Assembly: GCA_963800065.1 (NCBI GenBank)
Contig: CAWCZO010000007.1
Span: 176,474-240,473 of the forward strand
DNA from: an uncultured Acidimicrobiaceae bacterium
GTDB taxonomy: Bacteria > Actinomycetota > Acidimicrobiia > Acidimicrobiales > UBA8190
Direction: 5' to 3'
DNA length: 64,000 nt
Shown: positions 31,437-47,596 of the stretch, piece by piece
Layout of the letters: each line of letters begins with the position of its first letter
Numbering within the stretch: position 1 is the stretch's first letter
Made by a program: the position numbers and the translations under genes
The notes under the pieces: model-generated
What the model saw: the letters and a program-made list of their open reading frames with translations, nothing else
Databases searched by the model: none
Told to the model about the DNA's origin: nothing

Positions 31437-34400
31437 TCAGGCCTGGTCGAGCTGGTCCCGCAGAGCGGCCCACTGACGCCCGAGGGCCGGCAGGGCGAGT
31501 GCGCCGGCGGTGGCGTCGGCCTCGTCGGTGAGCTGAGCGGCCCGGGTCGTCTCGCCGCGCTCCAGCCACGTCTGGGCCCAGTCGAGTTGGCAACGCGCCA
31601 TCCAGACCGGGCTCATCAGCCCACGGCTGAAGGCGATCGCCTCGTCGAAATGCCGATCGGCGTCCGTCGGTCGGCCGAGCAGTACCTCCAGGTTGGCCAG
31701 CAACCGCGACGCCGGTCCGCAGCCGACACTGCCCGAGGTCATCTGTATGCCGTCATGGGGCCGGAGGATCTCGCACAGGTCGGAGGCGGCACGGCGATCA
31801 CCGATATAGGCGGCGACCTCGGACCACAGGGCCACCGCCAGGGGCCATTCGATGTCGTCGGGGATGTCACCGAAGCCGGCGTGACTCGCCCTGTGAAGCA
31901 GGATGGCGGCATCGTCGCGGTGATCGCTCTCGACCAGCGCGAAGGCCACGGCCGCCGCCGCCGCTGCTGAGGGTGGTCGGGATGCGGCATCGACCGTCAG
32001 GGCCGGGATGAGCTCCGGAAGCCGCTCCTGTTCGCGGCGAAGAGCGAGTTGAGAGATGGCTCCGACCTTGTCGGTCTGGATCGTTCCGGTCATTCGCCGC
32101 ACGTCGCACGCCTCGGCGGACAGGGTCTCGGCGTCGGCCAGCCGGCCGTCGATGACGGCGAGGGCGTGGCCGAGCACGAGGTGGGAACGCAGCGCAATCT
32201 GGTTCTGACCGCCGGCCGACGTCTCCGACAGGGTCATCACCTGGGACCGGAGCATTTCGCCGTCCCCCGCCGTGAACGTGCAGAAGGCGGCGTTGGTCTG
32301 CGTGGTGGCCACCCAAAGGGGGTCACCCAGTGTGAGAGCGGCGTCGAGCGCCCGGCCGAAGAGCGGACGGTCGAGCCTGAACTGTCGCGCCGACCAGATC
32401 GATCGCGGGCGGGCCACGAACTCGGCGGCCGACACCTCGATGAGGGCCTGTTGGTCACCCGACAGTCGGGCCTGTTCCCGGGCGTCGTCGAGGATCGGGC
32501 CGCGGCGCGTCGAGGCACCGAGGAAGATCGATTCGACGGCCAGGGCGCCGAGCAGACGCGCCCGACGGGCAGGGGACCCGGGCAACCCCAACGAATACTC
32601 CAGGAGCTCGATCTTCTCGGGATCGCTCTGTTGCTCCTGGTCGAACGACGTCCGCACGTTGACGAGGAGCGCCTCGATCATGGCGTCGTCGAGCTCTGCC
32701 TTCCGGGCCAGAACGACGGCCTCGCGCAGATGGGCCCCGGCGTCTCCCACCCCGGAGACCAATTCCGCCTTGGCCAGGAGGGTGAGGAGGTCGACGTCGT
32801 CCCTGGTGGTCTCCGTCTCCTTGTCGGAGGGGTTCGACCGGAGTCGACGACGGGCGCCCCGGATGAGAGTGCCGTCCGAAACGGCGGCCACGACGTCGGC
32901 CTGCCCCGGCTGAGCCGAGACGGTGGCGACGTGCCCGGGGGAGTCGACGGACACGAGGACCCCTTCGGCGAACTCGACCCCGCACCGGTAGACGGTGGCC
33001 CCGGATTCGACGTAGTAGGCGTGGCCGGCGTCGTGGGAGTGTTCGAGGATCATGCAGTCGTAGCGCCGGGCCAGCCGGGCCAGCTCGTCGAACGTCTCCA
33101 CATCGACCACCAGTGGGGCCTTGACCGCCGGACTGGCCGTCACGGCCACCAGGTCGGGACGGAAGGCGGCATGGATGCGACCGGTCTCGTCCATGCGCCG
33201 ACGGCGCATCCACCAGATGCCGGCGCCGAAGGCGGCGAGGAGCGAGAGGATCAGGCCGACGAGGGCCAGCCGCCTGGCCCCGGTCACGGCGACGGCGCGC
33301 CCGAGGATCGTCATCTTCGCCGGCACCCGCGTCGGGCGTTCGACCGACCCGGGGCTGTCCGGGGTGAGGGCCTTGTCAGCGGCGACGCTGCCGCCCTGCA
33401 CCACGTCGATCTCCTGTTCGTTCACCGGGAAGGTGAGAGAAGGAGCGAACATGTCGGCGACGGGGGCGCCGTCGAGCGTCCCACGGATGTGCACGGTCGG
33501 TGTCACCACGATGTTCGGGTCCCCGAGAGGCATCCCCGTCTCGGTGTCGAAGGCCTTTTCCACCACGGCGATCTGTGTCAGGTCGAGGGGGACGTCGACG
33601 GTGGCGGTCGGGCCGGAGAAGGCGACGGGAGCCACGGTGCCCAGCGGAGCGCTCCATCCGTCGGGACCCTCGACTACGGCCGTGGCCCCTATGGTGCCCG
33701 ACACAGACACCGGGGCCTCCGATGCACGGCGCGTGGTGAGGTCCAACGAATAGCGTGCCGTCACCTCGAGGGAGTGGACGAGGTGCAGGAACACAGGGTC
33801 GCCCGTCGTCACCAATCCCGTCGGGTAGGTAATGCCGGCGGGGGCGAGGGCGGCGTAGGAGAAGCTGACGTGCTGGTCGAAGGCCACGGAACTCTGGCTC
33901 CCCCGGGTGATGGGCCGCGTCCACGTCACCGCTGTCAGAGCACCGAACACAACCACCAGGGCCAAGCCCACGGCGATGGGCCACCATCCCACCCGGACGG
34001 TCTCGCGCCCCACCCGATCGGAGTCCGTCCCCGCCCGCACGGTTTCCGGGGTGGCCTGCCGGGGACCCGGATCGACGGCGCCGGGGAGGACGGCTCGGCC
34101 CGGGCGCCGGCGCCGGCGCGCCGTCTGGCCGATGCCCAGGGCGACGAGGAAGAAAGCGAGAAGGCCGAGGACGATGGGAGATCGCACCCAGCCGAGGACG
34201 GTGCCGCCGTCGGGGATGTGGAGCCACAGGCGTCCCCTGATAGCCGAGGCGGGCAGCGCCTGGGGATCCTTGAACGAGTTGTTGTCCCCTTTGAAGGTGA
34301 ACAAACCGTTGTGTTCGGCCACGATCCGGTGGAGCACGGTGATGTGCAGCAACGGGCTGTGGTACCCGACGATCTCGCCGACGTGGTAGCTGCCACTGGG

Positions 34401-34559
34401 TACGATGACGGCGAGGTCGCCGGAGTGGAACCTCGGCTCCATGCTCACCCCGTGCGTGGTGACCAACGCCACCTCGCCGGTGGCCATCGCCACGATGGCG
34501 GCGAGGCCGATCACGACGACGAGGGCGGCGCAGATGCTTCGCAGCCGTCGCCCCCTCAT
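31437..34559 (-). CDS. SipW-type (S26, ER/archaeal-type) signal peptidase I fused to a DUF5305-like ectodomain and a ~570-aa cytoplasmic helical-repeat (TPR-like) domain
   Basis: N-terminus has a TM, then GVSMEPRFHSGDLAVI (Ser box), VLHRIV (His box) and FKGDNN (GDN box). Further TM segments lie near aa 128-146, 193-214 and 441-461. The C-terminal tail resembles the C-terminal repeats of large LAL/SARP regulators. Confidence 0.8.
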   Translation of the reverse strand: MRGRRLRSICAALVVVIGLAAIVAMATGEVALVTTHGVSMEPRFHSGDLAVIVPSGSYHVGEIVGYHSPLLHITVLHRIVAEHNGLFTFKGDNNSFKDPQALPASAIRGRLWLHIPDGGTVLGWVRSPIVLGLLAFFLVALGIGQTARRRRRPGRAVLPGAVDPGPRQATPETVRAGTDSDRVGRETVRVGWWPIAVGLALVVVFGALTAVTWTRPITRGSQSSVAFDQHVSFSYAALAPAGITYPTGLVTTGDPVFLHLVHSLEVTARYSLDLTTRRASEAPVSVSGTIGATAVVEGPDGWSAPLGTVAPVAFSGPTATVDVPLDLTQIAVVEKAFDTETGMPLGDPNIVVTPTVHIRGTLDGAPVADMFAPSLTFPVNEQEIDVVQGGSVAADKALTPDSPGSVERPTRVPAKMTILGRAVAVTGARRLALVGLILSLLAAFGAGIWWMRRRRMDETGRIHAAFRPDLVAVTASPAVKAPLVVDVETFDELARLARRYDCMILEHSHDAGHAYYVESGATVYRCGVEFAEGVLVSVDSPGHVATVSAQPGQADVVAAVSDGTLIRGARRRLRSNPSDKETETTRDDVDLLTLLAKAELVSGVGDAGAHLREAVVLARKAELDDAMIEALLVNVRTSFDQEQQSDPEKIELLEYSLGLPGSPARRARLLGALAVESIFLGASTRRGPILDDAREQARLSGDQQALIEVSAAEFVARPRSIWSARQFRLDRPLFGRALDAALTLGDPLWVATTQTNAAFCTFTAGDGEMLRSQVMTLSETSAGGQNQIALRSHLVLGHALAVIDGRLADAETLSAEACDVRRMTGTIQTDKVGAISQLALRREQERLPELIPALTVDAASRPPSAAAAAAVAFALVESDHRDDAAILLHRASHAGFGDIPDDIEWPLAVALWSEVAAYIGDRRAASDLCEILRPHDGIQMTSGSVGCGPASRLLANLEVLLGRPTDADRHFDEAIAFSRGLMSPVWMARCQLDWAQTWLERGETTRAAQLTDEADATAGALALPALGRQWAALRDQLDQA

Positions 34560-34632
34560 CGTCCCACCTCCCGAGGTGGGGTGGTGCGGGCCGTCACTGC
34601 CCGCACCACCCCGGTTCGGATACTTCGCCTAG

Positions 34633-35532: not shown

Positions 35533-38328
35533 ATGCTCAGGCGGCTTCGACGGTTCCAGTTGATGGCGGGCGCCCTGATCGCGCTGACGGGGTCGGTGTT
35601 GCTTGTCACGGTGCCCTCCGCCACCGTCGCCTCGGCCGGGACCGGGTGGTCGGGGCCCACGACCGTGGACGACTCTTCGCCCGTGGTCGTCGACGCCGTC
35701 TCCTGCCCCACCACCACTTTCTGCGCCGGGGTCAACAGCGCCCAGGACGAGGCGACCGTCTACAACGGATCGGACTGGTCGGCCCAGACGACCTACGAAG
35801 GGACGGGACCCTCCACCAGCGCTGTCTCGTGCGTCTCTTCGACCTTCTGCGTGGCCACCGACAGCAGCGGCAACGCCATCTTCTACAACGGACACTCCTG
35901 GTCGGTCGTGGCCGCCGGTTTCGACATGTCGTCGATCTCCTGCGTGTCGTCGTCGTTCTGCATGGGAGTCACCGAGGGGGCGAGCGCCGGCGACGCCGTT
36001 CTGTACAACGGGGCGACGTGGACACCGGCTGTGATCGATTCCGGTGTCGACCTCTGGTCGGTGTCGTGCCCCACAACCTCGTTCTGTGAGGCCTTCGACA
36101 ACAACGGAAATGCCTTCGCCTTCAACGGCGCCTCGTGGACCTCGCAGGGCAACGTCGACTCCAACCCCGCGGTAGGGATACCCTGGATCGAGGTGTCGTG
36201 CACCGTCACCGGGGGGACCCTCTGTGCCATGGTGGATGGGTGGGGCTCCGGCTTCCACTACAACGGCGTGACATGGACCGCCGACGGCGACCTGAACGCC
36301 TCCCATTACTTCACCTCGGTGTCGTGTGCCAGTGCCTCCTTCTGTGCCGCAGTGGACAGCGGCGGCGGGACGTGGATCTACACCGGAACGGGCTGGACGG
36401 GCTTCCCTCCCGAAGGGGGCCATCCGTATTTCAACTCGGTGTCGTGCCCCCAGGGCAGTTCCTTCTGCGTGGCCGTCGACAACGAGGGCACGTACTTCGT
36501 GACGACAAACGCCGAGACGTCCTGGTCTGGGGAGGGGTTGACCAGTGACAGCGCCCCCACCGGGATCCTGACCGTGTCGTGCGCCACGTCGGCCTTCTGT
36601 GTCACCGGCGACCCATTGGGCAACACCGCCACCTACAGCGGTGACAAATGGGGTTCTGCCGAGAGCATCGACGACAACGCCCTCAACTCCGTGTCGTGTC
36701 CGACGGCGACGTTCTGCGCGGCGGTCGATGATGCCGGTCAGGTCGTCACCTTTGACGGTTCGAGCTGGTCCGCGCCCGACAATATCGTCGGTACCAACAT
36801 GTTGTCGGTGTCCTGCGCCAGCGCCGATTCGTGCGTGGCCATCGACAATGCCGGAGACGCCCTGCTGTACAACGGATCGACGTGGACCGACAACTCCGAG
36901 GTCGATGGGAGTCAGCTGGTGGGTGTGTCGTGTGCACCGGGCACCGCCTTCTGTGCCGCCATCGACAACGTCGGGAATATCATCACCACCACCGACGGGG
37001 GAACGGGCAGCTGGGCGAGCTATTCGACCGGCGCCGGATCGCTGGCCTCGGTATCGTGTTCCACCGCCAGCTTCTGCGTGGTGGTGAGCGGTGAAGGCGA
37101 CGCGTTGACCACCGACAACGGTGGCAGCACGTGGTCGAGCCCCGACGACATCGACCCTGGTCAAGCGTTGAATTCGGTGTCGTGCGCCACGCAGAACTTC
37201 TGCACGGCCGTGGACGACGCCGGCAACGCCCTGCTCACCGACAACGGCGCCGGCTCCTGGTCCAGCGCCGACATCGACGGCGGCCAGCCCCTCGCCTCGG
37301 TGTCGTGCACCTCGCCCACCTTCTGCGTGGCCGTGGACAGCGACGGCAACGCCCTGCTCTACACCCCACCTTCCCCGCCGGGGCTGTACGTGAGCGTGGT
37401 GGCGCCCTACACCGGTCTCACGACCGGGAACACGGTCGTCACCATCACGGGGTCGGGCTTCACCACCCACGACGTGACGAACGTGTTCTTCGGCACCGGG
37501 ACCGCCAGCGACGTCGATGTGCTGGACAACACCACCATCACCGCCGACTCCCCTCCCGGGTCGGCCGGCACCGTGGACGTGACGGTGGCCACCACGACGG
37601 GCACCTCGGCGGTGAACTCGGCCGATCAGTTCACCTACACGGTGGCAACGGGCCAGACCCCGCAATCGTGCACCCCGAACTGCTCCCTGGCCCTCTCCAC
37701 CCCCCTGGCCGCCACCACCGTGCTGGCCTCGGGCACCTCGAGCGAGGAGGGGGCAGCCCTCTACCTGTCGGTGAACGCCGGGACCCTGCCGTGCGCCGGG
37801 GCCCACGACTACACGGCGGCGGTGTCGGACCTGTCCACCAACGCCTTCGCCCCCGATGCCACCGTCACCGTGACCGAGACGATCGGGGACATACCGAGCA
37901 CGAAGGGGGTGAAGGTGTGTTACGCGCCGCTAAGCGCATCGACCGGTACCTTCCTGTCCAAGTGTCACACCCACGTGGTCGCTCCCTGCCGCAAGTCCCT
38001 GAAGGAGCTCTACGGCCACGCCGGCGCGGTGGCCACCTTCGTGGTGAACGCCAACGATCCGCGCTTCTGGACGGGGATCAGCTCGCTCAAGGTGACCGGG
38101 TTCACCCCCACCCACGGCGCACCCGGCTCCATGGTGACCATTAAGGGGACCAACCTGGCCGGGGCCGTGGGCGTGAGCATCGGAGGGGCGTCGGCCCACA
38201 TCGCCAAGGCCACGACCAAGGAGCTCAAGGTGACCGTGCCCTCTTCGGCGCAAACCGGCGTCTTCACGGTCACGGCCGCATCCGGATCGGTGACCTCACC
38301 CACCGCCTTCACCGTCACCGGAGGGTGA
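35533..38328 (+). CDS. Secreted 14-repeat (Cys-pair, Asp-box-like) beta-propeller-type protein with two IPT/TIG domains
   Basis: Signal peptide MLRRLRRFQLMAGALIALTG..ASA. 14 repeats of 37-45 aa of the form SVSC-x4-6-FC-x-AVD-x2-GNA-x2-YNG-x2-W(S/T); the later ones are TDNGGSTWSS-like (Asp-box). IPT-like segments near aa 617-700 and 850-930. Confidence 0.8.
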   Translation: MLRRLRRFQLMAGALIALTGSVLLVTVPSATVASAGTGWSGPTTVDDSSPVVVDAVSCPTTTFCAGVNSAQDEATVYNGSDWSAQTTYEGTGPSTSAVSCVSSTFCVATDSSGNAIFYNGHSWSVVAAGFDMSSISCVSSSFCMGVTEGASAGDAVLYNGATWTPAVIDSGVDLWSVSCPTTSFCEAFDNNGNAFAFNGASWTSQGNVDSNPAVGIPWIEVSCTVTGGTLCAMVDGWGSGFHYNGVTWTADGDLNASHYFTSVSCASASFCAAVDSGGGTWIYTGTGWTGFPPEGGHPYFNSVSCPQGSSFCVAVDNEGTYFVTTNAETSWSGEGLTSDSAPTGILTVSCATSAFCVTGDPLGNTATYSGDKWGSAESIDDNALNSVSCPTATFCAAVDDAGQVVTFDGSSWSAPDNIVGTNMLSVSCASADSCVAIDNAGDALLYNGSTWTDNSEVDGSQLVGVSCAPGTAFCAAIDNVGNIITTTDGGTGSWASYSTGAGSLASVSCSTASFCVVVSGEGDALTTDNGGSTWSSPDDIDPGQALNSVSCATQNFCTAVDDAGNALLTDNGAGSWSSADIDGGQPLASVSCTSPTFCVAVDSDGNALLYTPPSPPGLYVSVVAPYTGLTTGNTVVTITGSGFTTHDVTNVFFGTGTASDVDVLDNTTITADSPPGSAGTVDVTVATTTGTSAVNSADQFTYTVATGQTPQSCTPNCSLALSTPLAATTVLASGTSSEEGAALYLSVNAGTLPCAGAHDYTAAVSDLSTNAFAPDATVTVTETIGDIPSTKGVKVCYAPLSASTGTFLSKCHTHVVAPCRKSLKELYGHAGAVATFVVNANDPRFWTGISSLKVTGFTPTHGAPGSMVTIKGTNLAGAVGVSIGGASAHIAKATTKELKVTVPSSAQTGVFTVTAASGSVTSPTAFTVTGG

Positions 38329-38397
38329 GCCGCACCTCCAACGTCGCGCGAAAATTGCCCCATGACCAGGGACAATGCTCTGTGTATGACTTCGAGT

Positions 38398-38430
38398 GGA
38401 GAGCCTGAGACTGTATTCAAACCCTCCAAA
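38398..38430. repeat. 33-nt intergenic repeat, copy A (GGAGAGCCTGAGACTGTATTCAAACCCTCCAAA)
   Basis: 30/33 identical to copy B at 40236..40268 in the same orientation. Flanks diverge immediately. Confidence 0.75.
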
Positions 38431-38590
38431 ATCGCTCCCGGAGGGCCGCGAACTCGCCCGTTCCTGACATTCTCCAGGTCATCGGCCTTCAGCGATCGCT
38501 TCCGACCGGGCTCAGGGCCAGGTTGCCGGATTCCTCTTCAAACATTCAGAGGTCGGCAATTCGAACGCCGATTGACGTGTGGCGGGTTGG

Positions 38591-39814
38591 TCAGAGGGAG
38601 TCGTGGGCGTTGGGAATCGAGGTCGTGGTCCAGGCCCCTCCAAGGCACATCTCGTCTGATGACCCGTCACCCCAGGTCACGAAGTGGGGAGGGACCTTGC
38701 GCAAAATTGGCAACTTTTGAGCAAGGGTCGGATCATAGGTGCAGGTGATTTGGAGCTTGTCCCCTGTATGCACGGGGATGGGAGTCTTCAAGTTGTAGGC
38801 CTTTTGGTAATCGAAGTTGTAGTCGGGGACACTGAGAACCGTCCGGGCTTGCGGTGTCCCTGGGTTGAGGACCATCGAGAAGCTGCGGCCGAGCAGGTGC
38901 ATGTGGGCTTGCGCGCGAACGATGTAACCGCTTCTGCGGATAGGCCAGATACACGACGTCGTGTCACCCTCCGGCGGGTTCGAAGGATTGCGCCCGCAGA
39001 ACTGCTCGAGGAGGTTCACCGTCTCGACCGCGCTCGCACCGAAGCGCTGTCCCAGGTTGGCGAGCGATGCTGCCCGGTTGCAAAGCGGTCCGTTCACCCC
39101 GGTTGGACAAGGGATGTCCGGGGGAGCGAGCGCTATGAGGCCTCCAAGCGGCAAGAGTGGTGTCGAGGTCGGCACGGTGTCGAGGGTGAGCGAGTTCTGA
39201 ACCGGCTTGTCACCTACGAGCAGGTTGTAGTGGACCTGCATGATCACAAGACTCCCGGCAGGAAGCTCGATCCCCGTCCCCTTCGGCAGGTCGTCGGCGC
39301 CGTGACCCGGGGCCCACACGCTCAGCCAGTGAAGACCCAAGAAGTCAGCGAGCGACGCCCCGGGCAGCCCCGGTGCCCCGAAGCACGTCCAACCCCTGTT
39401 CCCGGTGTTGGCGTTGTCTTTGAGAGCAGTCGGCGCGAGGGATGGCGGGACCAAGGCCAGGATGGCGTGGTGGTCTTCGCGACTGCCGGGAATGAACTGG
39501 CTGGTGATGATGTAGGAGTCCCGGGTGACGTGAGGGTTGAGCAAGGTGCAGTGGTAGTCGTCGGTGCTTCCCACGTCCGCTTTGGGCGTGTAGGACGGAG
39601 ACACCAGCGTGACCGTGCTCACCTGCCGGGACGCGCGCGGAGGAGATGCTGAGGAGGCGGCCACGGCGGCAGTGAGCACCGCCGCCATGAGGACCAGAGC
39701 GAAGACCCCGGCCGTGACACCTCGCCGAGAAAGCCGCCGCCGAAATCGGGTCCTAGTGGTAGTCGAACCCTGGTCGGGTGGCTCGCGTTCGGACCGTTCG
39801 TCCAGATCCGTCAT
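38591..39814 (-). CDS. Copper type II ascorbate-dependent monooxygenase-like protein (PHM/DBH family), membrane-anchored or Tat-exported
   Basis: ATG 39814. N-terminus RFRRRLSRRGV plus a hydrophobic helix. CuH-like DDYHC..EDHHAIL..MQVHY. CuM-like AHMHLLGRSF..GDKLQITCTYD..SSDEMC. Confidence 0.8.
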   Translation of the reverse strand: MTDLDERSEREPPDQGSTTTRTRFRRRLSRRGVTAGVFALVLMAAVLTAAVAASSASPPRASRQVSTVTLVSPSYTPKADVGSTDDYHCTLLNPHVTRDSYIITSQFIPGSREDHHAILALVPPSLAPTALKDNANTGNRGWTCFGAPGLPGASLADFLGLHWLSVWAPGHGADDLPKGTGIELPAGSLVIMQVHYNLLVGDKPVQNSLTLDTVPTSTPLLPLGGLIALAPPDIPCPTGVNGPLCNRAASLANLGQRFGASAVETVNLLEQFCGRNPSNPPEGDTTSCIWPIRRSGYIVRAQAHMHLLGRSFSMVLNPGTPQARTVLSVPDYNFDYQKAYNLKTPIPVHTGDKLQITCTYDPTLAQKLPILRKVPPHFVTWGDGSSDEMCLGGAWTTTSIPNAHDSL

Positions 39815-40133
39815 TGTTCCCCCGTCCCTGTGCTTGGTCGTTGTCGGGGCTAGAACGCCGCAAATCGTCCCGGGACCTCTCGTTGTGCCCCAACAGGCTA
39901 ACCCGGCGAAGCTCGAACCGTTCGCTGGTCCCCGCAGAAACAGAACGGGCCCACGACAGCCAACGAAGCCGCTGGCTGATCCCCCAGGCGACAGCCACGT
40001 CGACATGGAGGCTGGACTCGGCGCGTGTGTCCATGTGGCCGCGGGACCGAGAGCTTGCTCCGGGCTCTACCGCGGGCACACCAGGCGCGACTGAGGGTCG
40101 GCTCCGCATTCGCCATCAGGCCTGCTGCAACTA

Positions 40134-40268: not shown

Positions 40269-40575
40269 GAGGATAAAAGACCTGCTCAGCCACTATGCAA
40301 GCGCTCCAGTATGAGCTGGAACCTGTTGCATTTGACCATCCAGGACCCGTCGATCCGAGCGATTCTCACTCCGACGGAATGCAGTGGTCGTCGCCAAACC
40401 TTTGTGCTCGGGTCTGAAGGCCTCAAGGAGCCGGCGAGCGCGCAATCCTTGGCAACGATCTGTCTGAGGGCGTGAGCCTCGTCTACGACCTGCGTCGAGA
40501 CCCGTGAACAGAGGTCTCCATGACCACGGCATAGACCCTGGTCGAACTGGCGGTGAGGTCCAGCGGGTTGGAATT

Positions 40576-40618
40576 GCCAGAAGGCCCGGTCCCGTGTCGA
40601 CGGACCGGGCCTTCTGGC
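40576..40618 (-). terminator. Strong hairpin downstream of the 40646..42181 gene (candidate intrinsic terminator)
   Basis: Perfect 17-bp inverted repeat GCCAGAAGGCCCGGTCC / GGACCGGGCCTTCTGGC with a 9-nt loop, 28 nt past the stop codon. No clear U-tract. Confidence 0.6.
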
Positions 40619-40645
40619 TACGTGGTGAACTTGATGCGATTCTTC

Positions 40646-42181
40646 CTAACAGCCCGTAGCCGACGACACGAACGTAAGTGTCACGTTTGTGCTGTTGTAA
40701 GTCACGTCGTAGCCTGAATGTGTTGCCCCGGGCGTAGGCAGACAGTTTCCAATAACAGGCCCAAAACTCCCGCTCACGCCGCCGGTCGCGTTGAGAATGT
40801 CGAACGTCTCGTTGAGCGTCGGCGTGAAGCCTGCCTGAGTGGTGATGTCCAGGTCACTGCCGTTCAGAGTCGCCGTGCTCGATCCCTGCAGGTTTCCGAA
40901 CGTGGATGAACCGATGGTTGTGGCGAACTGCGTTGATCCGGCCGCGCTCCCGAATGCGACGTAGGGACTGCTGAATGTGTCAGTACCCGTCGACGGGTCC
41001 AACTCGCCTCCAGTGCAACTGGGGACGACATTCAGCGTCGAGGCCGTCCACGGCCCAACGATGGTGCCGGCAACGGACAAAGAGCTGAATGTTTGCCCAT
41101 TGGTATAGAGAGGACCTCGGCCACTGCCGCAATCGACGTAATAGGTTCCGGCGCCGGACGTCGTGACTGTCGAGGCCAAGGTTCGGCTCCCCTGGAATTC
41201 GATGGTGGCGCCGGTGCCGACCGAATAATTGCCCGATTGGCTTGGTGGGCTGGTTGGGCACCCCGAGGCGCTGCACGGCACGTAGAAGCAGCCGTTGGTC
41301 CCCGGGAAGCAACCACTATTCGCCGTTGCGCCAGTCACAGACACCGACCCCTCGTTATCGAAAACGTATCCGGTCTGCCCGAAACCAGCGGAGTGCGACA
41401 GAGACGTGATCGTTCCGTTGGGTTCGTTCACCACCGACGTCGTTGTCCCGTCATAGCCCGCACAAGGTCCCCAAGCCGTCGATCCTGCTACGAATTCCAG
41501 CAATCCCTCGTTTTCAAGGGTTTCGTTAGCCGACGGACCATAAGAAGGGTAGGGGACATAGCCAATACATCCGCCACCGGTCTCCAGGGTGCCCTTGTTC
41601 ACAATGGTGACACCCGCAGTGAGTCCGTACGGTCCATTGTATGACCAGCCTGGCGAAATATTGGCTGTTTGGTGGGCCGGAATCGTGAGAGTTCCAGGGC
41701 CACCGATTCCACCCGCTATTGCGGTCGTCTTCCCTAGGAGCTCGAGTGATCCCGCCGCGTTATGGATCGATAGGGCCTCGTTCCCCTGTTGGTAATTGGT
41801 GATCTCCGATGAAACGGCGCCGACGAGCTCGAGGACACCGGCGGTGCCCGTCTTGTTCTGGAGCCCCGCTTTGTTGGTGAAGTCGAGCCCCAGGATCGTG
41901 CCGCTCGCATCCGTCACGGTGGGAAAGTTCTTGACCTTGAGACAGGCGTAGTCCGTCGGCCCAGGTGCATAACCTTCGGACCAATTGGTCGAAGTAGCCC
42001 AGTCGGTCCCAGTGCCGGTAGGGCCGCCTGTGAAGTTGTCGGTGCACCTGTGCTTCTTGGCGAGTGGCGAGGCCGCATTCTGATGTGTCGCTGCGCTAGC
42101 CCAGGTTGGAATGGCGAGGACGCCGCTAGCGACGATCGCCACGGTCGAAAGCGTTGCAACAAGACGTCTCGAGTTCTTCAT
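40646..42181 (-). CDS. Secreted Gly/Thr/Ser-rich beta-helix-like protein of unknown function
   Basis: ATG 42181 with AAGGAGGAGG upstream. Signal peptide MKNSRRLVATLSTVAIVASGVLAIPTWASA. The N-terminal W..STNWS.GY.P.P.D.A motif is typical of beta-helical passenger-like proteins. Low GC. Confidence 0.65.
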   Translation of the reverse strand: MKNSRRLVATLSTVAIVASGVLAIPTWASAATHQNAASPLAKKHRCTDNFTGGPTGTGTDWATSTNWSEGYAPGPTDYACLKVKNFPTVTDASGTILGLDFTNKAGLQNKTGTAGVLELVGAVSSEITNYQQGNEALSIHNAAGSLELLGKTTAIAGGIGGPGTLTIPAHQTANISPGWSYNGPYGLTAGVTIVNKGTLETGGGCIGYVPYPSYGPSANETLENEGLLEFVAGSTAWGPCAGYDGTTTSVVNEPNGTITSLSHSAGFGQTGYVFDNEGSVSVTGATANSGCFPGTNGCFYVPCSASGCPTSPPSQSGNYSVGTGATIEFQGSRTLASTVTTSGAGTYYVDCGSGRGPLYTNGQTFSSLSVAGTIVGPWTASTLNVVPSCTGGELDPSTGTDTFSSPYVAFGSAAGSTQFATTIGSSTFGNLQGSSTATLNGSDLDITTQAGFTPTLNETFDILNATGGVSGSFGPVIGNCLPTPGATHSGYDVTYNSTNVTLTFVSSATGC

Positions 42182-42193
42182 TGTCGTCCTCCT

Positions 42194-42285
42194 CCTTGAA
42201 GGTGGATCACGGTTGGGATCCTCTCGGAGTGTGTCGGGCATCCCCTGAAGGGCCCTTGAAAGGACCTTGAAGCTGCCTCCAAGCT
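42194..42285. promoter_or_regulatory. Array of CCTTGAAG-like direct repeats in the divergent promoter region
   Basis: CCTTGAAGG at 42194, CCTGAAGG at 42244, CCTTGAAAGG at 42254, CCTTGAAG at 42265 and CCTCCAAG at 42277. The last four are spaced 10-12 nt apart, about one helical turn. Confidence 0.3.
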
Positions 42286-42374
42286 GGGAATGGGACCGGA
42301 TGGGCGCCTTGCCGGGTCGGGGCCGGGCCGAGGGTTGTCAGGGCCTCAGCATTCGAGATTGGGCAGCTCAGGGG

Positions 42375-42380
42375 TATAAT
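42375..42380 (+). promoter_or_regulatory. Perfect TATAAT -10 hexamer upstream of the SARP-family regulator gene
   Basis: GGGGTATAATCTGG ends 14 nt before ATG 42395. This implies a very short leader. The -35 is weak (TTCGAG at 17-nt spacing). Confidence 0.4.
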
Positions 42381-42394
42381 CTGGGCCCTCTCGT

Positions 42395-45300
42395 ATGATG
42401 GGGGGAGCGGTGGAGTTCAAGATCCTCGGGCCGCTCGTCGTCCGCAGCGAAGCGGGCGAGGTGAAGGTGGCAGGCTTCCGGCGCCGAGCCCTTCTGGTGC
42501 GTCTGTTGACCGTCCCCAACCAGCTGGTCGCCGCCCCACGCCTGGCCGAGGACCTGTGGGAGGGCGAGCCGCCCACCAGCTGGGTGTCGACCCTTCAGAG
42601 CCACGTGTCGCTTCTGCGTCGGGTGCTTGGCCCGGGCCGGATCGAAGGCCGGGACGGTGGTTACTTGATCAACGCTGCAGATGACGAAATCGACAGCCGT
42701 CTGTTCGAGATCGAGAGCGGCCAGGGTCGCCATGCCCTCGAGGGGGGCGATCCCCGGAAAGCAGCCGGCCTCCTGCGTCAGGCACTGGATCGCTTCAACG
42801 GCCCAGCCCTGGTGGATGTGTCCGAAGCAGCCTGGGCCCTCTCCGAGGCATCCCGGCTTGAAGAGCTCCGCCTGAACACCCTCGAGCTGTGGCTCGACGC
42901 CCGTTTGGCCCTGGGCGAACACAACGAAGTGGTGGCCGCCGCCCAGGCAGCGGTGGCCGAGCATCAGCTCCGCGAGCGGTTGTGGGGTCAGCTGATCCTG
43001 GCCTTGTATCGCTCAGGCCGTCAGGCCGACGCTCTGCGCGCCTACCAGCGGCTCCGGACCACTTTGGGCGACGAACTCGGTATCGAGCCATCGGCTGAAT
43101 TGGTCGCTCTCGAACAGGCCGTGATCCTGCAACGGCCCGAAATGGACTGGAGAGAACGCACCGGTTCGTCTCCTCGCTCGCCATTCGCTGCGCAGACACC
43201 GAGTACGTTCGGCGAGGGCCCGGTGGTGCCGATGCCGGCACGGCTCTTGACGGGTCCGGAATACGGATTCGTCGGGCGAGCCGTCGGGGTGGTCGGCAGA
43301 GAGACCGAGCTTACCGAGATGACTGAGGCGACGAAACGCGTCTCAGGAGGTGGGGGACGGGAGATCCTGCTCATCTCGGGCGAGGCCGGTCTGGGTAAGA
43401 CCACCCTCCTGGCCGAGGCGGCACGAGCGGCGTTCGACAATGGAGTCTGTGTCTTGTTCGGACACTGCGAGGAGGACCTTGCCACTCCCTACCAACTCTT
43501 CGCCGAGGCCCTCGGACACTTCGTCACACATGCCACGGATGAACAATTGTCTGCCCACATAGCGGCTCACGGGTCGGAGCTGTCCCGGCTCGTTCCAGGA
43601 CTCGCCAACCGGATCCGGGACCTTCCGCCATCCAAGGCCACCGACGCCGACACCGAGCGCTACCTCCTTTTCGAGGCGATCGTCGGACTCTTCTCCATGC
43701 TCTCGGCCCAGCTGCCAGTCGTTCTCGTACTCGACGATCTGCAGTGGGCGGACAAGGGAAGCCTCCACCTTCTACGCCATCTGGTCGCGGCAGAGCAACA
43801 AACGCGAGTGCTCGTTCTCGGGGCTTACCGCGACACCGAACTATCTCGGACTCATCCCCTCCTCGAGACCCTCGGGGCGCTACGCCGACAACAAGGCGTC
43901 AGCCGGATCGAGCTGACAGGGCTGGATGACACCGGGGTGATTTCATTTATGGAGGCCGCCGCTGGTCAGACGCTTGACGCCGATGGCGTCGATCTCGCCC
44001 ATGCCGTTCACCGTGAAACCGACGGGAACCCGTTCTTCCTCAGTGAGGTGCTCCGCCATCTTGTCGAGACAGGGGCAATCTATCGGGACACAGCCGGACA
44101 GTGGGTAAGGGACGACAGCCTCGAATCACTGGGCCTACCTGCCGGCGTACGCGAAGTAATCGGTGCCAGGGTCGGGCGGCTCGGGGCGAGTTCCGAGCGG
44201 GTCTTGTCGTTTGCGGCGGTCATAGGCCGGGACTTCGACTTCGAAGTACTGGCCGAGGCCACCGAGACTCGGGAGGACGAGCTTCTCGAGGTGCTCGACG
44301 CTGCTCGATCGGCGGCCCTAGTGCGCGAAATGCGGGATGCTCCGGGGCATTACAGCTTCGCCCACGCACTGATTCAACACACGCTGTATGAGGACCTCGG
44401 TCCCACTCGCCAGGCAAGGGTGCATCGGAGGGTTGCCGAAGCGTTGGAGGATCTCAGTCAGGGACGACCTGGGCGGCGAGTCGGTGAGCTAGCGCGCCAT
44501 TGGTTCAAAGCAACTCAACCCAAGGATTTGGCCAAGGCCATCGAATATTCTCGGCAGGCGGCCGACGCCGCTCTCGCCGCGCTTGCCCCGGGCGAAGCCC
44601 TTCGCTATTACTCTCAGGCCCTCGACCTCTTCGCTGAGGCCGATGACTCCGAGCCTCTCCTGGACATCGACCTCCGCATCGGTCTCGGAACCGCCCAACG
44701 TCAGTCGGGAGACCCGGCTTACCGCGAGACCCTGCTCGAAGCGGCCGGGCGCGCCGCCCGTCTCGACGACACAGAACGGCTGATTGCCTCGGTTCTGGCC
44801 AATGACCGGGGATTCTTCAGCGCTCTCGGAGCCATCGACAGTGAAAAAGTCGCGATCTTGGAGACGACGCTCGATCGCCTCTCCGCTAGCCACCCGGCCC
44901 GGGCCCTTGTACTCGCCAACCTGAGCAAGGAGCTTGCTGTCGGGACCGCACTCGAACGTCGCCGTACTCTGGCTGAAGAGGCGGTCGCCCTCGCAGAGAT
45001 GTCGGGGAACGACGCCACGATCGTGCGGGTTCTGAACCATGTGGCCGTTCCACTCCTCGTGCCCCCTATGCTTGAGCAATCGCTGACCAGGTCGACCGAG
45101 GCCCTGGCGCGAGCAGAACGCCTGGGCGACCCAGCCCTCATGTTCTGGGCGGCAACCGTGCGTCGCATTGTTGCTGCTTGTGACCAAGACGTCGACGAAT
45201 TGGATCGATGTTTTGAGATCGCCGGGTCCCAGGCCGAACAACTGAACCAGCCGACGCTGAACTGGGTGCAAACCTTCGGGCGAGCCTCACGAGCCCTCGT

Positions 45301-46018
45301 GGCCGGGGACCCCGACGGAGCCGAACAGCTTGCAACTGAGGCCCTCCAGATCGGAACGAATGGCGGCGAGCCCGACGTCGCTACCGTATTCGGACCTCAG
45401 CTCATTGGTGTGCACTTTGAACGCGGGACCTTGGGAGACTTCATTGCCATCATCGAGCAGAACGTTGCGGAGTTCCCCGGGGTTCCCGCCTTCGTAGCAG
45501 CGCTGGCACTCGCTCACGTCGAAGCTGATGACCCCGATGCCGCTCGTCCGCTGTTGGAAGAGTTCGAATGCAAGGGATTCGAAATTCCGATTGACATCGT
45601 CTGGCTCACTGCGATGGCTCTCTATGCGGAAGCCGCCATCGAGTGCGGCGATCCGGCATTCGCTCGGCCGATGCTCGAACGCCTTGCTCCTTGGGAGGAC
45701 CGGTTGATATATGACGCCGGAACTTCCGCTGGTCCCGTGAGTCATTACCTCGGGGGCCTGGCCGCGGTCCTCGGCAGGAGCGACGAAGCAGAGAGGTTCT
45801 TCGAGCAGTCCTCCAACTTCTCCGAGAGGGTTGGCGCCAAGTGGTTCGCCGCCCGGACCGAACTCTCGTGGGGGAGGATGCTCGCCGAGCGCCGGGGTCC
45901 CGGCGACGCCGAGAATGCTCGGAACCTTCTCAACAAGGCGCACAGCGCCGCAGCCACTCACGGGTACCGCACCGTTGAGCGCCGCGCTTTGTCGACTCTT
46001 CGATCGCTGGACGCTTAA
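42395..46018 (+). CDS. AfsR/SARP-family regulator (OmpR-type wHTH, BTAD, P-loop NTPase and TPR-like repeats)
   Basis: VEFKILGPLVV..RRRALLVRLL (wHTH), BTAD segment ..LRAYQRLRTTLGDELGIEPSAEL.., Walker A GEAGLGKTT, Walker B VLVLDDLQWAD, and a long helical C-terminus. Alternative start GTG 42410. Confidence 0.85.
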   Translation: MMGGAVEFKILGPLVVRSEAGEVKVAGFRRRALLVRLLTVPNQLVAAPRLAEDLWEGEPPTSWVSTLQSHVSLLRRVLGPGRIEGRDGGYLINAADDEIDSRLFEIESGQGRHALEGGDPRKAAGLLRQALDRFNGPALVDVSEAAWALSEASRLEELRLNTLELWLDARLALGEHNEVVAAAQAAVAEHQLRERLWGQLILALYRSGRQADALRAYQRLRTTLGDELGIEPSAELVALEQAVILQRPEMDWRERTGSSPRSPFAAQTPSTFGEGPVVPMPARLLTGPEYGFVGRAVGVVGRETELTEMTEATKRVSGGGGREILLISGEAGLGKTTLLAEAARAAFDNGVCVLFGHCEEDLATPYQLFAEALGHFVTHATDEQLSAHIAAHGSELSRLVPGLANRIRDLPPSKATDADTERYLLFEAIVGLFSMLSAQLPVVLVLDDLQWADKGSLHLLRHLVAAEQQTRVLVLGAYRDTELSRTHPLLETLGALRRQQGVSRIELTGLDDTGVISFMEAAAGQTLDADGVDLAHAVHRETDGNPFFLSEVLRHLVETGAIYRDTAGQWVRDDSLESLGLPAGVREVIGARVGRLGASSERVLSFAAVIGRDFDFEVLAEATETREDELLEVLDAARSAALVREMRDAPGHYSFAHALIQHTLYEDLGPTRQARVHRRVAEALEDLSQGRPGRRVGELARHWFKATQPKDLAKAIEYSRQAADAALAALAPGEALRYYSQALDLFAEADDSEPLLDIDLRIGLGTAQRQSGDPAYRETLLEAAGRAARLDDTERLIASVLANDRGFFSALGAIDSEKVAILETTLDRLSASHPARALVLANLSKELAVGTALERRRTLAEEAVALAEMSGNDATIVRVLNHVAVPLLVPPMLEQSLTRSTEALARAERLGDPALMFWAATVRRIVAACDQDVDELDRCFEIAGSQAEQLNQPTLNWVQTFGRASRALVAGDPDGAEQLATEALQIGTNGGEPDVATVFGPQLIGVHFERGTLGDFIAIIEQNVAEFPGVPAFVAALALAHVEADDPDAARPLLEEFECKGFEIPIDIVWLTAMALYAEAAIECGDPAFARPMLERLAPWEDRLIYDAGTSAGPVSHYLGGLAAVLGRSDEAERFFEQSSNFSERVGAKWFAARTELSWGRMLAERRGPGDAENARNLLNKAHSAAATHGYRTVERRALSTLRSLDA

Positions 46019-46594
46019 CGAGCGACCCAGGTTCGCTAACCAACGATCGGAAAGCCGCACCTTCAGCGCATCACTATTCATTGGAGGCCGAAAGCGGGAT
46101 CCGGGACTCGCTCGACGTCCTTCAAGAAAACGCATAGTCAAGCGCATGAAGGCATTTGAATATGGGTCACGCTTGCCGCCGCTGCGGCGCCCATCTCAGG
46201 GCGGACCATTAGTCAGCTGGGGATCCCATCCTGGCCTGGATGTGGTCCTCCTTCTCAGGCCTACTCGATGGCACGATTCCCGCTTAGGCGCGCAGCGGGA
46301 ACGCCCCAGAAGGCGTCGACGGAAGCATTGGAGAGTGGAATGAATAGACCCGAGCACGGGGTTCGTCGCCTACGTGACGGTCAGCCAATCTCGTCGCTTC
46401 GCTTCGGTCACGCCTTCGCTTCGCAGCCAGGCTCGGTTTGGACCAAACCGGGACCCGACGTGCGGGACCCAAACCCCAGGACCTCAGATGAATGACCTGG
46501 TCGCAGACAAGAGCGTCTCGCCCTTCGCTCAAACCGGCCAACTGAAGGCGATGCGCCAGTCGGCGCACCAGAAGCTGTATCTGGCGGTACAAAC

Positions 46595-46610
46595 CTTCGG
46601 GGGTTTGAAT
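46595..46610 (+). repeat. Short repeat copy D (CTTCGGGGGTTTGAAT)
   Basis: Matches copy C and the reverse complement of the 3' part of copies A and B (GGAGGGTTTGAA). Lies 80 nt from tRNA-Ser(CGA). Confidence 0.55.
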
Positions 46611-46689
46611 AAGCATCATCCGATGGTCGACCGATCCCACACCCACATAACCCGTTGATCAGGGGTGACGACCGCTGTTTAAGCATAAG

Positions 46690-46776
46690 CGGAGGAGGTG
46701 GGATTCGAACCCACGGTGGCCTTGCGACCACAACGGTTTTCGAGACCGTCCGATTCGTCCGCTCTCGCACTCCTCC
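46690..46776 (-). tRNA. tRNA-Ser (anticodon CGA)
   Basis: Reverse complement reads GGAGGAG..ACGGT-CTCGAAA-ACCGT..long variable arm..GTGGGTTCGAATCCCAC-CTCCTCC-G. Acceptor, anticodon and T arms all pair. No encoded CCA. Confidence 0.9.
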
Positions 46777-46822: not shown

Positions 46823-47269
46823 TCAGCGTCTGGCGGCGAAGAAGCGGGCCAGGAGGAGGCCGGTCTCGTCGGCCAGGATCCCGCCCGTCACCGGGAGCTC
46901 GTGGTTGAGCCGCGGGTCGTGACAGAGCTGGTAGAGCGATCCACAGGCGCCCGCCTTCGGATCGGAGGCCCCGAACACGAGCCGCCCGGTCCGGGCGGCG
47001 ACGAGGGCTCCGGCGCACATCGGGCACGGCTCGAGCGTCACCACCAGCGTCACGGCGGGGAGGCGCCACGTGGCGAGGGCCGCGGCCGCGTCGCGCAGGG
47101 CCAGGAGCTCGGCGTGGGCGGTCGGGTCCTGGCGCAGCTCCCGTTCGTTGTGGCGGGAGGCGATCACCCGGCCGTCGACGAGGGCCACCGCTCCCACGGG
47201 CACGTCGCCGTGGAAGAGCGCCGCCTCCGCTTCGACCAGGGCCAGTCGCATGGCGTGGGCGTCGTCCAC
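46823..47269 (-). CDS. tadA: tRNA-specific adenosine deaminase
   Basis: AHAELLAL (HAE) and TLEPCPMCAGAL (PCxxC) zinc motifs. GTG 47269 or ATG 47251 as start. Confidence 0.85.
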   Translation of the reverse strand: MDDAHAMRLALVEAEAALFHGDVPVGAVALVDGRVIASRHNERELRQDPTAHAELLALRDAAAALATWRLPAVTLVVTLEPCPMCAGALVAARTGRLVFGASDPKAGACGSLYQLCHDPRLNHELPVTGGILADETGLLLARFFAARR

Positions 47270-47332
47270 CTCGCCACGGTAGGGCAGACGGAGGGCAGGT
47301 GCGGTCCCTGACCCTCCGCCGGCCCTCGTCAG

Positions 47333-47417
47333 CGGAGGAGGTGGGATTTGAACCCACGGTGAGTTTCCCCACACACGATTTCCAATCGTGCCGATTCGGC
47401 CGCTCTCGCACTCCTCC
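47333..47417 (-). tRNA. tRNA-Ser (anticodon GGA)
   Basis: Reverse complement reads GGAGGAG..CACGA-TTGGAAA-TCGTG..variable arm..GTGGGTTCAAATCCCAC-CTCCTCC-G. Confidence 0.9.
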
Positions 47418-47470
47418 GGAGGCTGCCCGCTCGCAGCAGCAGGGAGGCTATCGTCTCGGCCGGACCGCTC

Positions 47471-47596
47471 GGTGCTCCGTGCGGCGGCCGGGTCCTGCGC
47501 AACGGGCACCCGTGAACCGAGTCAGGGCCGGAAGGCAGCAGCTCTCAGCGGCGCCGTCCGTGTGCCGTAGCAAACCTGGCCGTCGCACCGAACACC
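47471..47596 (+). ncRNA. ffs: Signal recognition particle RNA (small bacterial SRP / 4.5S-type)
   Basis: GUCAGGGCCGGAAGGCAGCAGC matches the domain IV consensus (E. coli GUCAGGUCCGGAAGGAAGCAGC) with a compensatory change. 5' GUGCGGCGGCCGGGU pairs with 3' ACCUGGCCGUCGCAC. Sits in the classic position upstream of dnaX. Ends are +/-10 nt. Confidence 0.75.

Follow-up and report, generated by a model that had tools for sequence, protein, structure and literature searches.

A predicted bacterial member of the PHM/DBH copper monooxygenase superfamily in a variable region of an uncultured Acidimicrobiaceae genome

Peptidylglycine alpha-hydroxylating monooxygenase (PHM) and dopamine beta-hydroxylase (DBH) are textbook monooxygenases that have two separate copper sites and are treated as eukaryotic. 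Among animals, they serve the amidation of peptide hormones (PHM) and the synthesis of noradrenaline (DBH). Here, we describe a gene for a PHM/DBH-like protein of 407 amino acids on the minus strand of contig CAWCZO010000007.1 (assembly GCA_963800065.1), from an uncultured Acidimicrobiaceae bacterium. The whole stretch of DNA that was analysed, 64,000 nucleotides in length, is referred to as the window, and its features are collected in Table 1. The open reading frame (ORF), with its stop end at 38591, could start either at 40006 or at the ATG at 39814. The ATG yields 407 residues, the length also found in the closest homologues (84 to 91% identity). All motifs quoted in an earlier interpretation of the same DNA (the sequence-only reading) were recovered in this protein, at residues given by the translation: DDYHC at 85-89, HH at 115-116, QVHY at 193-196, HMH at 304-306, DEMC at 387-390, CPTG...LC at 236-245, and ITCTYD with C358.

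Table 1. Coordinates of the PHM-like gene, its parts and the features around it, in window positions.
Feature	Coordinates	Strand	Basis or remark
Coding sequence (CDS), PHM/DBH-like copper monooxygenase (407 aa + stop)	38591..39814	-	ORF, homologue length, Pfam PF03712, profile and fold matches
Likely ribosome-binding site GGGGGA, 6 nt 5' of the ATG	39815..39826	-	Read from the sequence
Single hydrophobic helix, residues 33-55; signal anchor or uncleaved signal peptide	39650..39718	-	Hydropathy, AlphaFold2 model
N-terminal jelly-roll domain with CuH site, residues 66-230	39125..39619	-	Aligned to PHM
CuH ligand codons, H115/H116	39467-39472	-	Within N-terminal jelly-roll domain
CuH ligand codon, H195	39230-39232	-	Within N-terminal jelly-roll domain
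Clade-specific, largely helical insert, residues 231-290, with C236, C245, C273 and C288	38945..39124	-	AlphaFold2 model, alignment
C-terminal jelly-roll domain with CuM site, residues 291-400	38615..38944	-	PF03712, PHM alignment
CuM ligand codons, H304/H306	within 38897-38905	-	C-terminal jelly-roll domain
CuM ligand codon, M389	38648-38650	-	C-terminal jelly-roll domain
Downstream copy of ~30-nt intergenic motif	38398..38430		Direct repeat flanking the PHM-like gene
Upstream copy of ~30-nt motif, ~420 nt 5' of the start codon	40236..40268		Homology with the closest genome, L001, ends here
1063-aa protein gene	31437-34628	-	Weak Peptidase_S24 and DUF5305 matches, TPR
931-aa secreted protein gene	35533-38328	+	Cys-rich repeats, IPT/TIG domains
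1207-aa BTAD/AAA/TPR (SARP/AfsR-like) regulator gene	42395-46018	+	
Segment with the 531-aa and SARP genes	~40270-46640		Absent from the two closest genomes
Imperfect 43-nt direct repeat bounding this segment	40140-40182 and 46599-46641		Copies 74% identical
tRNA-Ser (CGA)	46689-46776	-	Rfam
tadA-like deaminase ORF	46823-47521	-	Overlaps second tRNA; true CDS probably shorter
tRNA-Ser (GGA)	47332-47417	-	Rfam
Small signal recognition particle (SRP) RNA	47486-47584	+	Rfam

The sequence-only reading had taken the protein to be of PHM/DBH type with both copper sites positionally conserved, and this is borne out by profile alignment to rat PHM and by fold matches. A profile was built from an alignment of 43 diverse relatives (28 to 91% identity to the query) and compared with the sequences of the PDB. 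It retrieved rat PHM (E = 3e-9) and human DBH (E = 4.6e-9), and both domains were aligned, the whole N-terminal domain included. Note that this diverse profile was needed for the PHM match; searches with the single sequence or a shallow profile returned DBH alone, weakly. With PHM residues counted along the 1OPM chain (chain index + 44 = PAM numbering), the CuH residues H115, H116 and H195 align with rat PHM H107, H108 and H172. The CuM residues H304, H306 and M389 align with H242, H244 and M314, with no gaps at the ligand positions. Five ligands (H115, H116, H195, H304 and M389) are invariant among the 43 relatives, and H306 is kept in at least 90%. The second-sphere PHM residues Y79, Q170, Q272 and E313 correspond to Y87, Q193, Q337 and E388, all of which are likewise invariant. 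So are C89 and C144 in the N-terminal domain and C358 and C390 in the C-terminal domain. Four cysteines have PHM equivalents (C89 = C81, C288 = C227, C358 = C293 and C390 = C315). The histidine of DDYHC, previously counted as a CuH ligand, does not belong to the set: H88 aligns with PHM F80 and is replaced by Arg (DDYRC) in distant relatives. The motif itself corresponds to DTYxC of PHM, which holds the disulfide cysteine Cys81. The C-terminal Pfam model Cu2_monoox_C (PF03712) matches residues 297-391 with a score of 37 bits (E = 3e-9), above its cut-off of 23.

The predicted structure agrees with the alignment. An AlphaFold2 model made with 27 homologues had a predicted local distance difference test score (pLDDT) of 74 and a predicted template modelling score of 0.74; pLDDT fell below 50 only in residues 382-386 and, outside the helix, in the N-terminal 61 residues. 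When the model was compared with the PDB by Foldseek, DBH (4zel) came first (E = 3e-13), and ranks 1 to 31 were exclusively DBH or PHM (E from 3e-13 to 4e-9, probability 1.0, TM score up to 0.65 by target length). Shared with the PHM core of rat PAM (PDB 1PHM/1OPM/1SDW) are the two jelly-roll domains, the CuH His-His...His and CuM His-x-His...Met sets in aligned columns, the DTYxC, QVHY and SDEMC motifs, and equivalents of the disulfide cysteines C81 and C293/C315. The query differs in its bacterial host, in about 10 additional residues before the Met ligand, and in its membrane anchor, which is N-terminal rather than C-terminal as in PHM. It differs, too, in residues near the CuM site. PHM R240, N316 and Y318, which we take to be the residues that hold the glycine carboxylate and backbone of the substrate, align with Q302, L391 and G393, and the alignment runs ungapped from these columns to the ligands. 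DBH likewise has Gln at the R240 position, and most members of the bacterial family have Leu-Gly after the Cys. Human DBH (PDB 4ZEL) is the top match by single sequence and by fold and has the same ligand set, as by extension do tyramine beta-monooxygenase and MOXD1. Compared with human DBH, at 16% identity, the query lacks the DOMON domain (no Pfam match) and the C-terminal dimerisation domain and adds the membrane anchor and an inter-domain insert; it is thus predicted not to be a DBH orthologue.

This insert, of about 55 residues with four cysteines, forms helices at 247-258 and 260-272 in the AlphaFold2 model and has no PHM counterpart except for C227 (C288 in the query). Both the insert and its four cysteines are kept throughout the bacterial relatives. 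Because PHM C334, the partner of C227, has no equivalent in the query, C288 presumably forms its disulfide within the insert. The interdomain cysteine pattern of the sequence-only reading stands only in part: the CPTG/LCNR and ITCTYD cysteines are present, but those of CPTG/LCNR sit in the insert that PHM lacks.

The first 65 residues comprise a charged head, one hydrophobic helix and a linker modelled at low confidence. An acidic and presumably cytoplasmic head (MTDLDERSERE) is followed by an Arg-rich stretch (residues 21-31) and then by the helix (AlphaFold2, 33-54), where the highest 19-residue hydropathy window reaches 2.4 (residues 33-53). A comparable hydrophobic segment was found in 117 of 120 close homologues, 11 of which have a lipobox-like motif. 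Clear lipoprotein signals occur in more distant relatives, such as that of Nonomuraea gerenzanensis (LLASC). Because a single hydrophobic helix follows the Arg cluster and eight cysteines are invariant in the homologues, the natural reading, as earlier proposed, is that the catalytic domain lies outside the cytoplasm, probably tethered to the membrane. Dedicated export by the twin-arginine translocation (Tat) pathway was considered and is not supported. SRRGV is present, but the Arg pair has no fixed aligned position among the homologues, some of which have lipoboxes.

The family to which this protein belongs is large. One word-indexed search gave 2761 matches among 8000 scored candidates. When representatives of clusters at 50% identity were searched exhaustively, 3513 clusters matched at E <= 1e-3; tightening the threshold to 1e-10 left 1508, and 1e-30 left 197. 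Among prokaryotic species genomes, 219 relatives were confirmed, and the best 80 of these are all from Acidimicrobiales, Acidimicrobiaceae or unclassified actinobacterial metagenome-assembled genomes (MAGs) from soil, peat and palsa. Many genomes have two or three paralogues, for example OY970155.1 (loci L001 and L020) and MFD02248.bin.3.14 (L010, L016 and L019), and the L002 locus has two adjacent copies. The view that bacterial members are rare is not compatible with these counts. Existing source labels for members are 'monooxygenase' or Cu2_monoox_C, and no model for the PHM-like bacterial family was found in NCBIfam. A plasmid collection held one relative, unannotated there, on a Nonomuraea gerenzanensis replicon (NZ_LT559118.1, 339202-340170; locus L080). 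This relative, from a cultured actinomycete, is 39% identical to the query and has a lipoprotein signal. It lies between a histidine-kinase-like ORF and a convergent pyridoxal phosphate (PLP)-dependent decarboxylase-like ORF, both identified by eye. The replicon is filed as a plasmid and, at 11.85 Mb, is chromosome-sized. In a 2022 paper (PMC8812541), PHM is described as the eukaryotic counterpart of PNGase F, the former being widespread among eukaryotes and the latter among bacteria. The 407-aa gene is itself an ordinary member of this large family, which is already picked up by automatic annotation. The points of greater interest are at the level of the family: its size, the inter-domain insert, the loss of peptide-binding residues, and fusions to cytochrome c.

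These fusions are frequent. Among 94 representative relatives of at least 340 residues, 55 have a CxxCH motif. It belongs to a domain of about 100 residues with the pattern PI..xxCxxCH...GGIAPF...YMPPW, located about 110 residues before the DxYxC motif and catalytic core. The fused domain scored up to 27.3 bits with Pfam Cytochrome_CBB3, against a cut-off of 27. In fusion proteins such as P0147, P0153, P0168 and P0200, the core is homologous to the query (30 to 40% identity), with the same insert and invariant residues. A mono-haem cytochrome c (CxxCH...MPPW), sometimes with a lipid-binding YceI domain (some of the relatives P0144-P0270), precedes this core, whereas the query has only its membrane anchor there. 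No description of this architecture was found in the searchable literature. The fusion of a cytochrome c domain in 55 of the 94 representatives suggests that the bacterial branch may be fed by a c-type cytochrome rather than by ascorbate.

The two genomes closest to the window (L001 and L002) have syntenic flanks, matching the window at 25.9-35.2 kb and 46.7-52 kb (to 52.4 kb). The DNA of the PHM-like gene (38355-39952) is 92% identical to L001 and 90% identical to L002. At four-fold degenerate sites, identity in the gene is 0.89 (L001) and 0.84 (L002), against 0.54 to 0.74 in most syntenic flanking genes. GC content at third codon positions (GC3) is 0.75 in the gene and 0.84 to 0.94 in flanking core genes. 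With four-fold-site identity above that of most flanking genes and a lower GC3, recent exchange of the gene among related Acidimicrobiaceae is suggested, although selection may also account for the pattern. A similar identity to L002, about 92%, is seen in the stretch at 46.8-48.8 kb.

A motif of about 30 nt, which on the minus strand reads GGAGGGTTTGAAWACWGTCTCAGGCTCTCC and has partly complementary ends, flanks the PHM-like gene as a direct repeat both in the window and in L001, in otherwise unrelated surroundings. Two copies occur in the 64-kb window, where none is expected by chance. Other copies were found in L001 (11407-11441 and 9685-9720) and L002 (5045-5074). The motif may act as an operator or a site of recombination, or it may be a small repeat element, and it need not belong to the function of the gene. 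A scan for promoters and terminators was uninformative.

The neighbourhood of the gene was compared across 79 related loci (about 1.5 Mb) by tblastn with the window neighbours, and about 1300 ORFs from these loci were clustered de novo. Neither method showed a conserved neighbour. In the clustering, no family adjoined the PHM-like gene at more than a handful of loci, and flanking genes point in either direction about equally often. In soil Acidimicrobiales, the PHM-like gene is thus a stand-alone, multi-copy gene with no conserved operon, and its context says nothing about function. In the window, it is convergent with the gene for the 931-aa secreted protein and lies 830 bp downstream of a gene for a 531-aa secreted protein with no Pfam match, beyond which, 2.6 kb upstream of the PHM-like gene, is the SARP-like regulator gene. 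None of the 79 loci encodes a relative of the 531-aa protein, whose gene, like the regulator gene, is absent from both L001 and L002; the 931-aa gene is kept only in L001. A gene matching most of the regulator was found at only three of the 79 loci (L070, L014 and L047), with short partial matches at two more. Across its C-terminal third, the 1063-aa protein shares about 30% identity with the C-terminal region of this regulator.

In the 931-aa protein, about a dozen Cys-rich repeats of 41 residues (VSCxxxxFCxAVDxxGNAxxYNGxxW) precede two IPT/TIG domains. Pfam contains no model of the repeat, and related proteins are common in Acidimicrobiales loci, with 33 copies in the roughly 1.5 Mb. The repeat/TIG family was considered as a partner and rejected. 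It occurs at 24 of the 79 loci at all distances and in all orientations, with 11 copies within 3 kb of the PHM-like gene against 16 at 6-10 kb. Because the family is not denser near the gene, it appears simply to be abundant in these genomes.

The island setting that had been proposed for the gene is upheld: it lies in a lower-GC, variable stretch beside tRNA-Ser genes. The segment with the 531-aa and SARP genes, which has the lowest GC content in the window (0.60 to 0.65), abuts tRNA-Ser(cga) and has an imperfect 43-nt direct repeat at its borders. The segment resembles DNA inserted at a variable site linked to a tRNA gene, although no integrase was seen. An Rfam scan of 30-50 kb returned the two tRNA-Ser genes and the SRP RNA and nothing else.

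Family membership, fold, ligand conservation and the lack of a conserved gene context are established here. We consider it very likely that the 407-aa protein truly belongs to the copper type II monooxygenase superfamily of PHM and DBH, as a distant member (about 15% identity) with both sites intact. By analogy with PHM and DBH, it is predicted to be catalytically active. The N-terminal helix would hold the enzyme in the cytoplasmic membrane, with the two jelly-roll domains facing outwards. CuH (H115, H116 and H195) would take electrons singly from an outside donor, a cytochrome or another reductant, and pass them on. CuM (H304, H306 and M389) would be the site where O2 is bound and activated and where a C-H bond of the substrate loses its hydrogen, so that a hydroxylated product forms. 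With the carboxylate-binding residues of PHM gone, glycine-extended peptides would not be the substrate of this enzyme. As the electron donor in this bacterial family, ascorbate is less likely than a c-type cytochrome or some other reductant outside the cytoplasm. We think it probable that this proposal as a whole, an outward-facing, membrane-held two-copper monooxygenase that does not act on peptidylglycine, is correct.

Several points weigh against it. Identity between the query and the solved PHM and DBH enzymes is only 13 to 17% overall, a level that also does not support 'eukaryote-like' in the sense of a recent transfer. Of the two Cu2 monooxygenase domains that Pfam had been expected to find, the C-terminal one was recovered, but the N-terminal model (PF01082) scored 15 bits, below its gathering score of 30; homologous relatives do pass it (P0168 with 39.2 bits and P0187 with 35.3 bits). 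The query itself has no cytochrome domain, so that the proposed donor rests on relatives at 30 to 40% identity. A separate cytochrome c was not found either: a hidden Markov model (HMM) of the 55 fused domains had no match in six-frame translations of the window and of the roughly 1.5 Mb of related loci. Lastly, no biochemically characterised bacterial member was found in the full-text literature outside subscription journals; the family thus does seem poorly characterised, as the sequence-only reading held.

Other functions were weighed. The first is DBH- or tyramine-beta-monooxygenase-like hydroxylation of phenylethylamine or a similar small amine, with which the top sequence and fold match, the Gln shared with DBH at the R240 position and the decarboxylase-like ORF (identified by eye) adjoining the Nonomuraea relative would agree. 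We nevertheless consider this unlikely: the DOMON domain is missing, the 79 loci share no neighbouring gene for a decarboxylase or an amine pathway, and the membrane anchor and the presence of several paralogues in one genome do not point to a single small-molecule pathway. About equally improbable is a role in vivo other than that of a monooxygenase, in which the protein would bind copper or transfer electrons outside the cytoplasm, for instance to buffer copper or as a redox relay. In favour of this reading, monooxygenase function is a prediction, the protein is multi-copy and membrane-tethered, and relatives carry a fused cytochrome c, itself an electron carrier. However, the CuM set including its Met and the equivalents of PHM Q170, Q272 and Y79 are conserved in relatives down to 28% identity, as would be needed for catalysis rather than for binding alone, and no copper-homeostasis genes are conserved nearby.

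The sequence-only reading had suggested amidation chemistry, that is, a true peptidylglycine alpha-hydroxylating enzyme acting on secreted peptides or proteins encoded nearby. Both copper sites and the second-sphere residues are indeed those of PHM, the domain is predicted to face outwards, and the adjacent 931-aa protein and its L001 orthologue end in ...TVTGG. Yet peptide amidation is unlikely, because R240, N316 and Y318 are all replaced and no PAL was found. No PAL/NHL domain was found in the query, which has only Cu2_monoox Pfam matches and ends 17 residues past M389, or in five neighbouring proteins that were scanned. The C-terminal Gly of the 931-aa protein was rejected as the mark of a PHM substrate, as it is found on that protein and its L001 orthologue and not in the rest of the repeat family; furthermore, the 931-aa neighbour is not conserved. 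Peptidylglycine would thus appear to be excluded as the substrate, and an amidating enzyme is very unlikely. Least probable of all is a tailoring role in a secondary-metabolite or island-borne pathway under SARP control, with a functional link to the regulator and the secreted neighbours. The 2.6-kb spacing and the lower-GC region bordering tRNA-Ser would agree with it. Against it stand the two closest genomes, where the PHM-like gene is kept without the SARP and 531-aa genes, the absence of biosynthetic genes beside it, the rarity of near-full SARP matches and the lack of any conserved neighbour.

For the window itself, the result is modest, as nothing around the gene reveals the substrate. 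For the family, a well-conserved, abundant bacterial branch with intact copper sites would supply model proteins, simple and free of glycosylation, with which to study a debated chemistry, and its fusions to cytochrome c point to a different electron supply. The branch may also hide new extracellular hydroxylation reactions in soil Actinomycetota. Tentatively, and with more doubt than confidence, we raise the possibility of a large extracytoplasmic PHM/DBH branch in bacteria that is driven by c-type cytochromes, fused or, as here, separate, in place of ascorbate, and that hydroxylates a class of substrate new to this enzyme family, such as a compound of the cell envelope or of soil organic matter. 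If true, this would explain why soil and peat Acidimicrobiales have several paralogues per genome.

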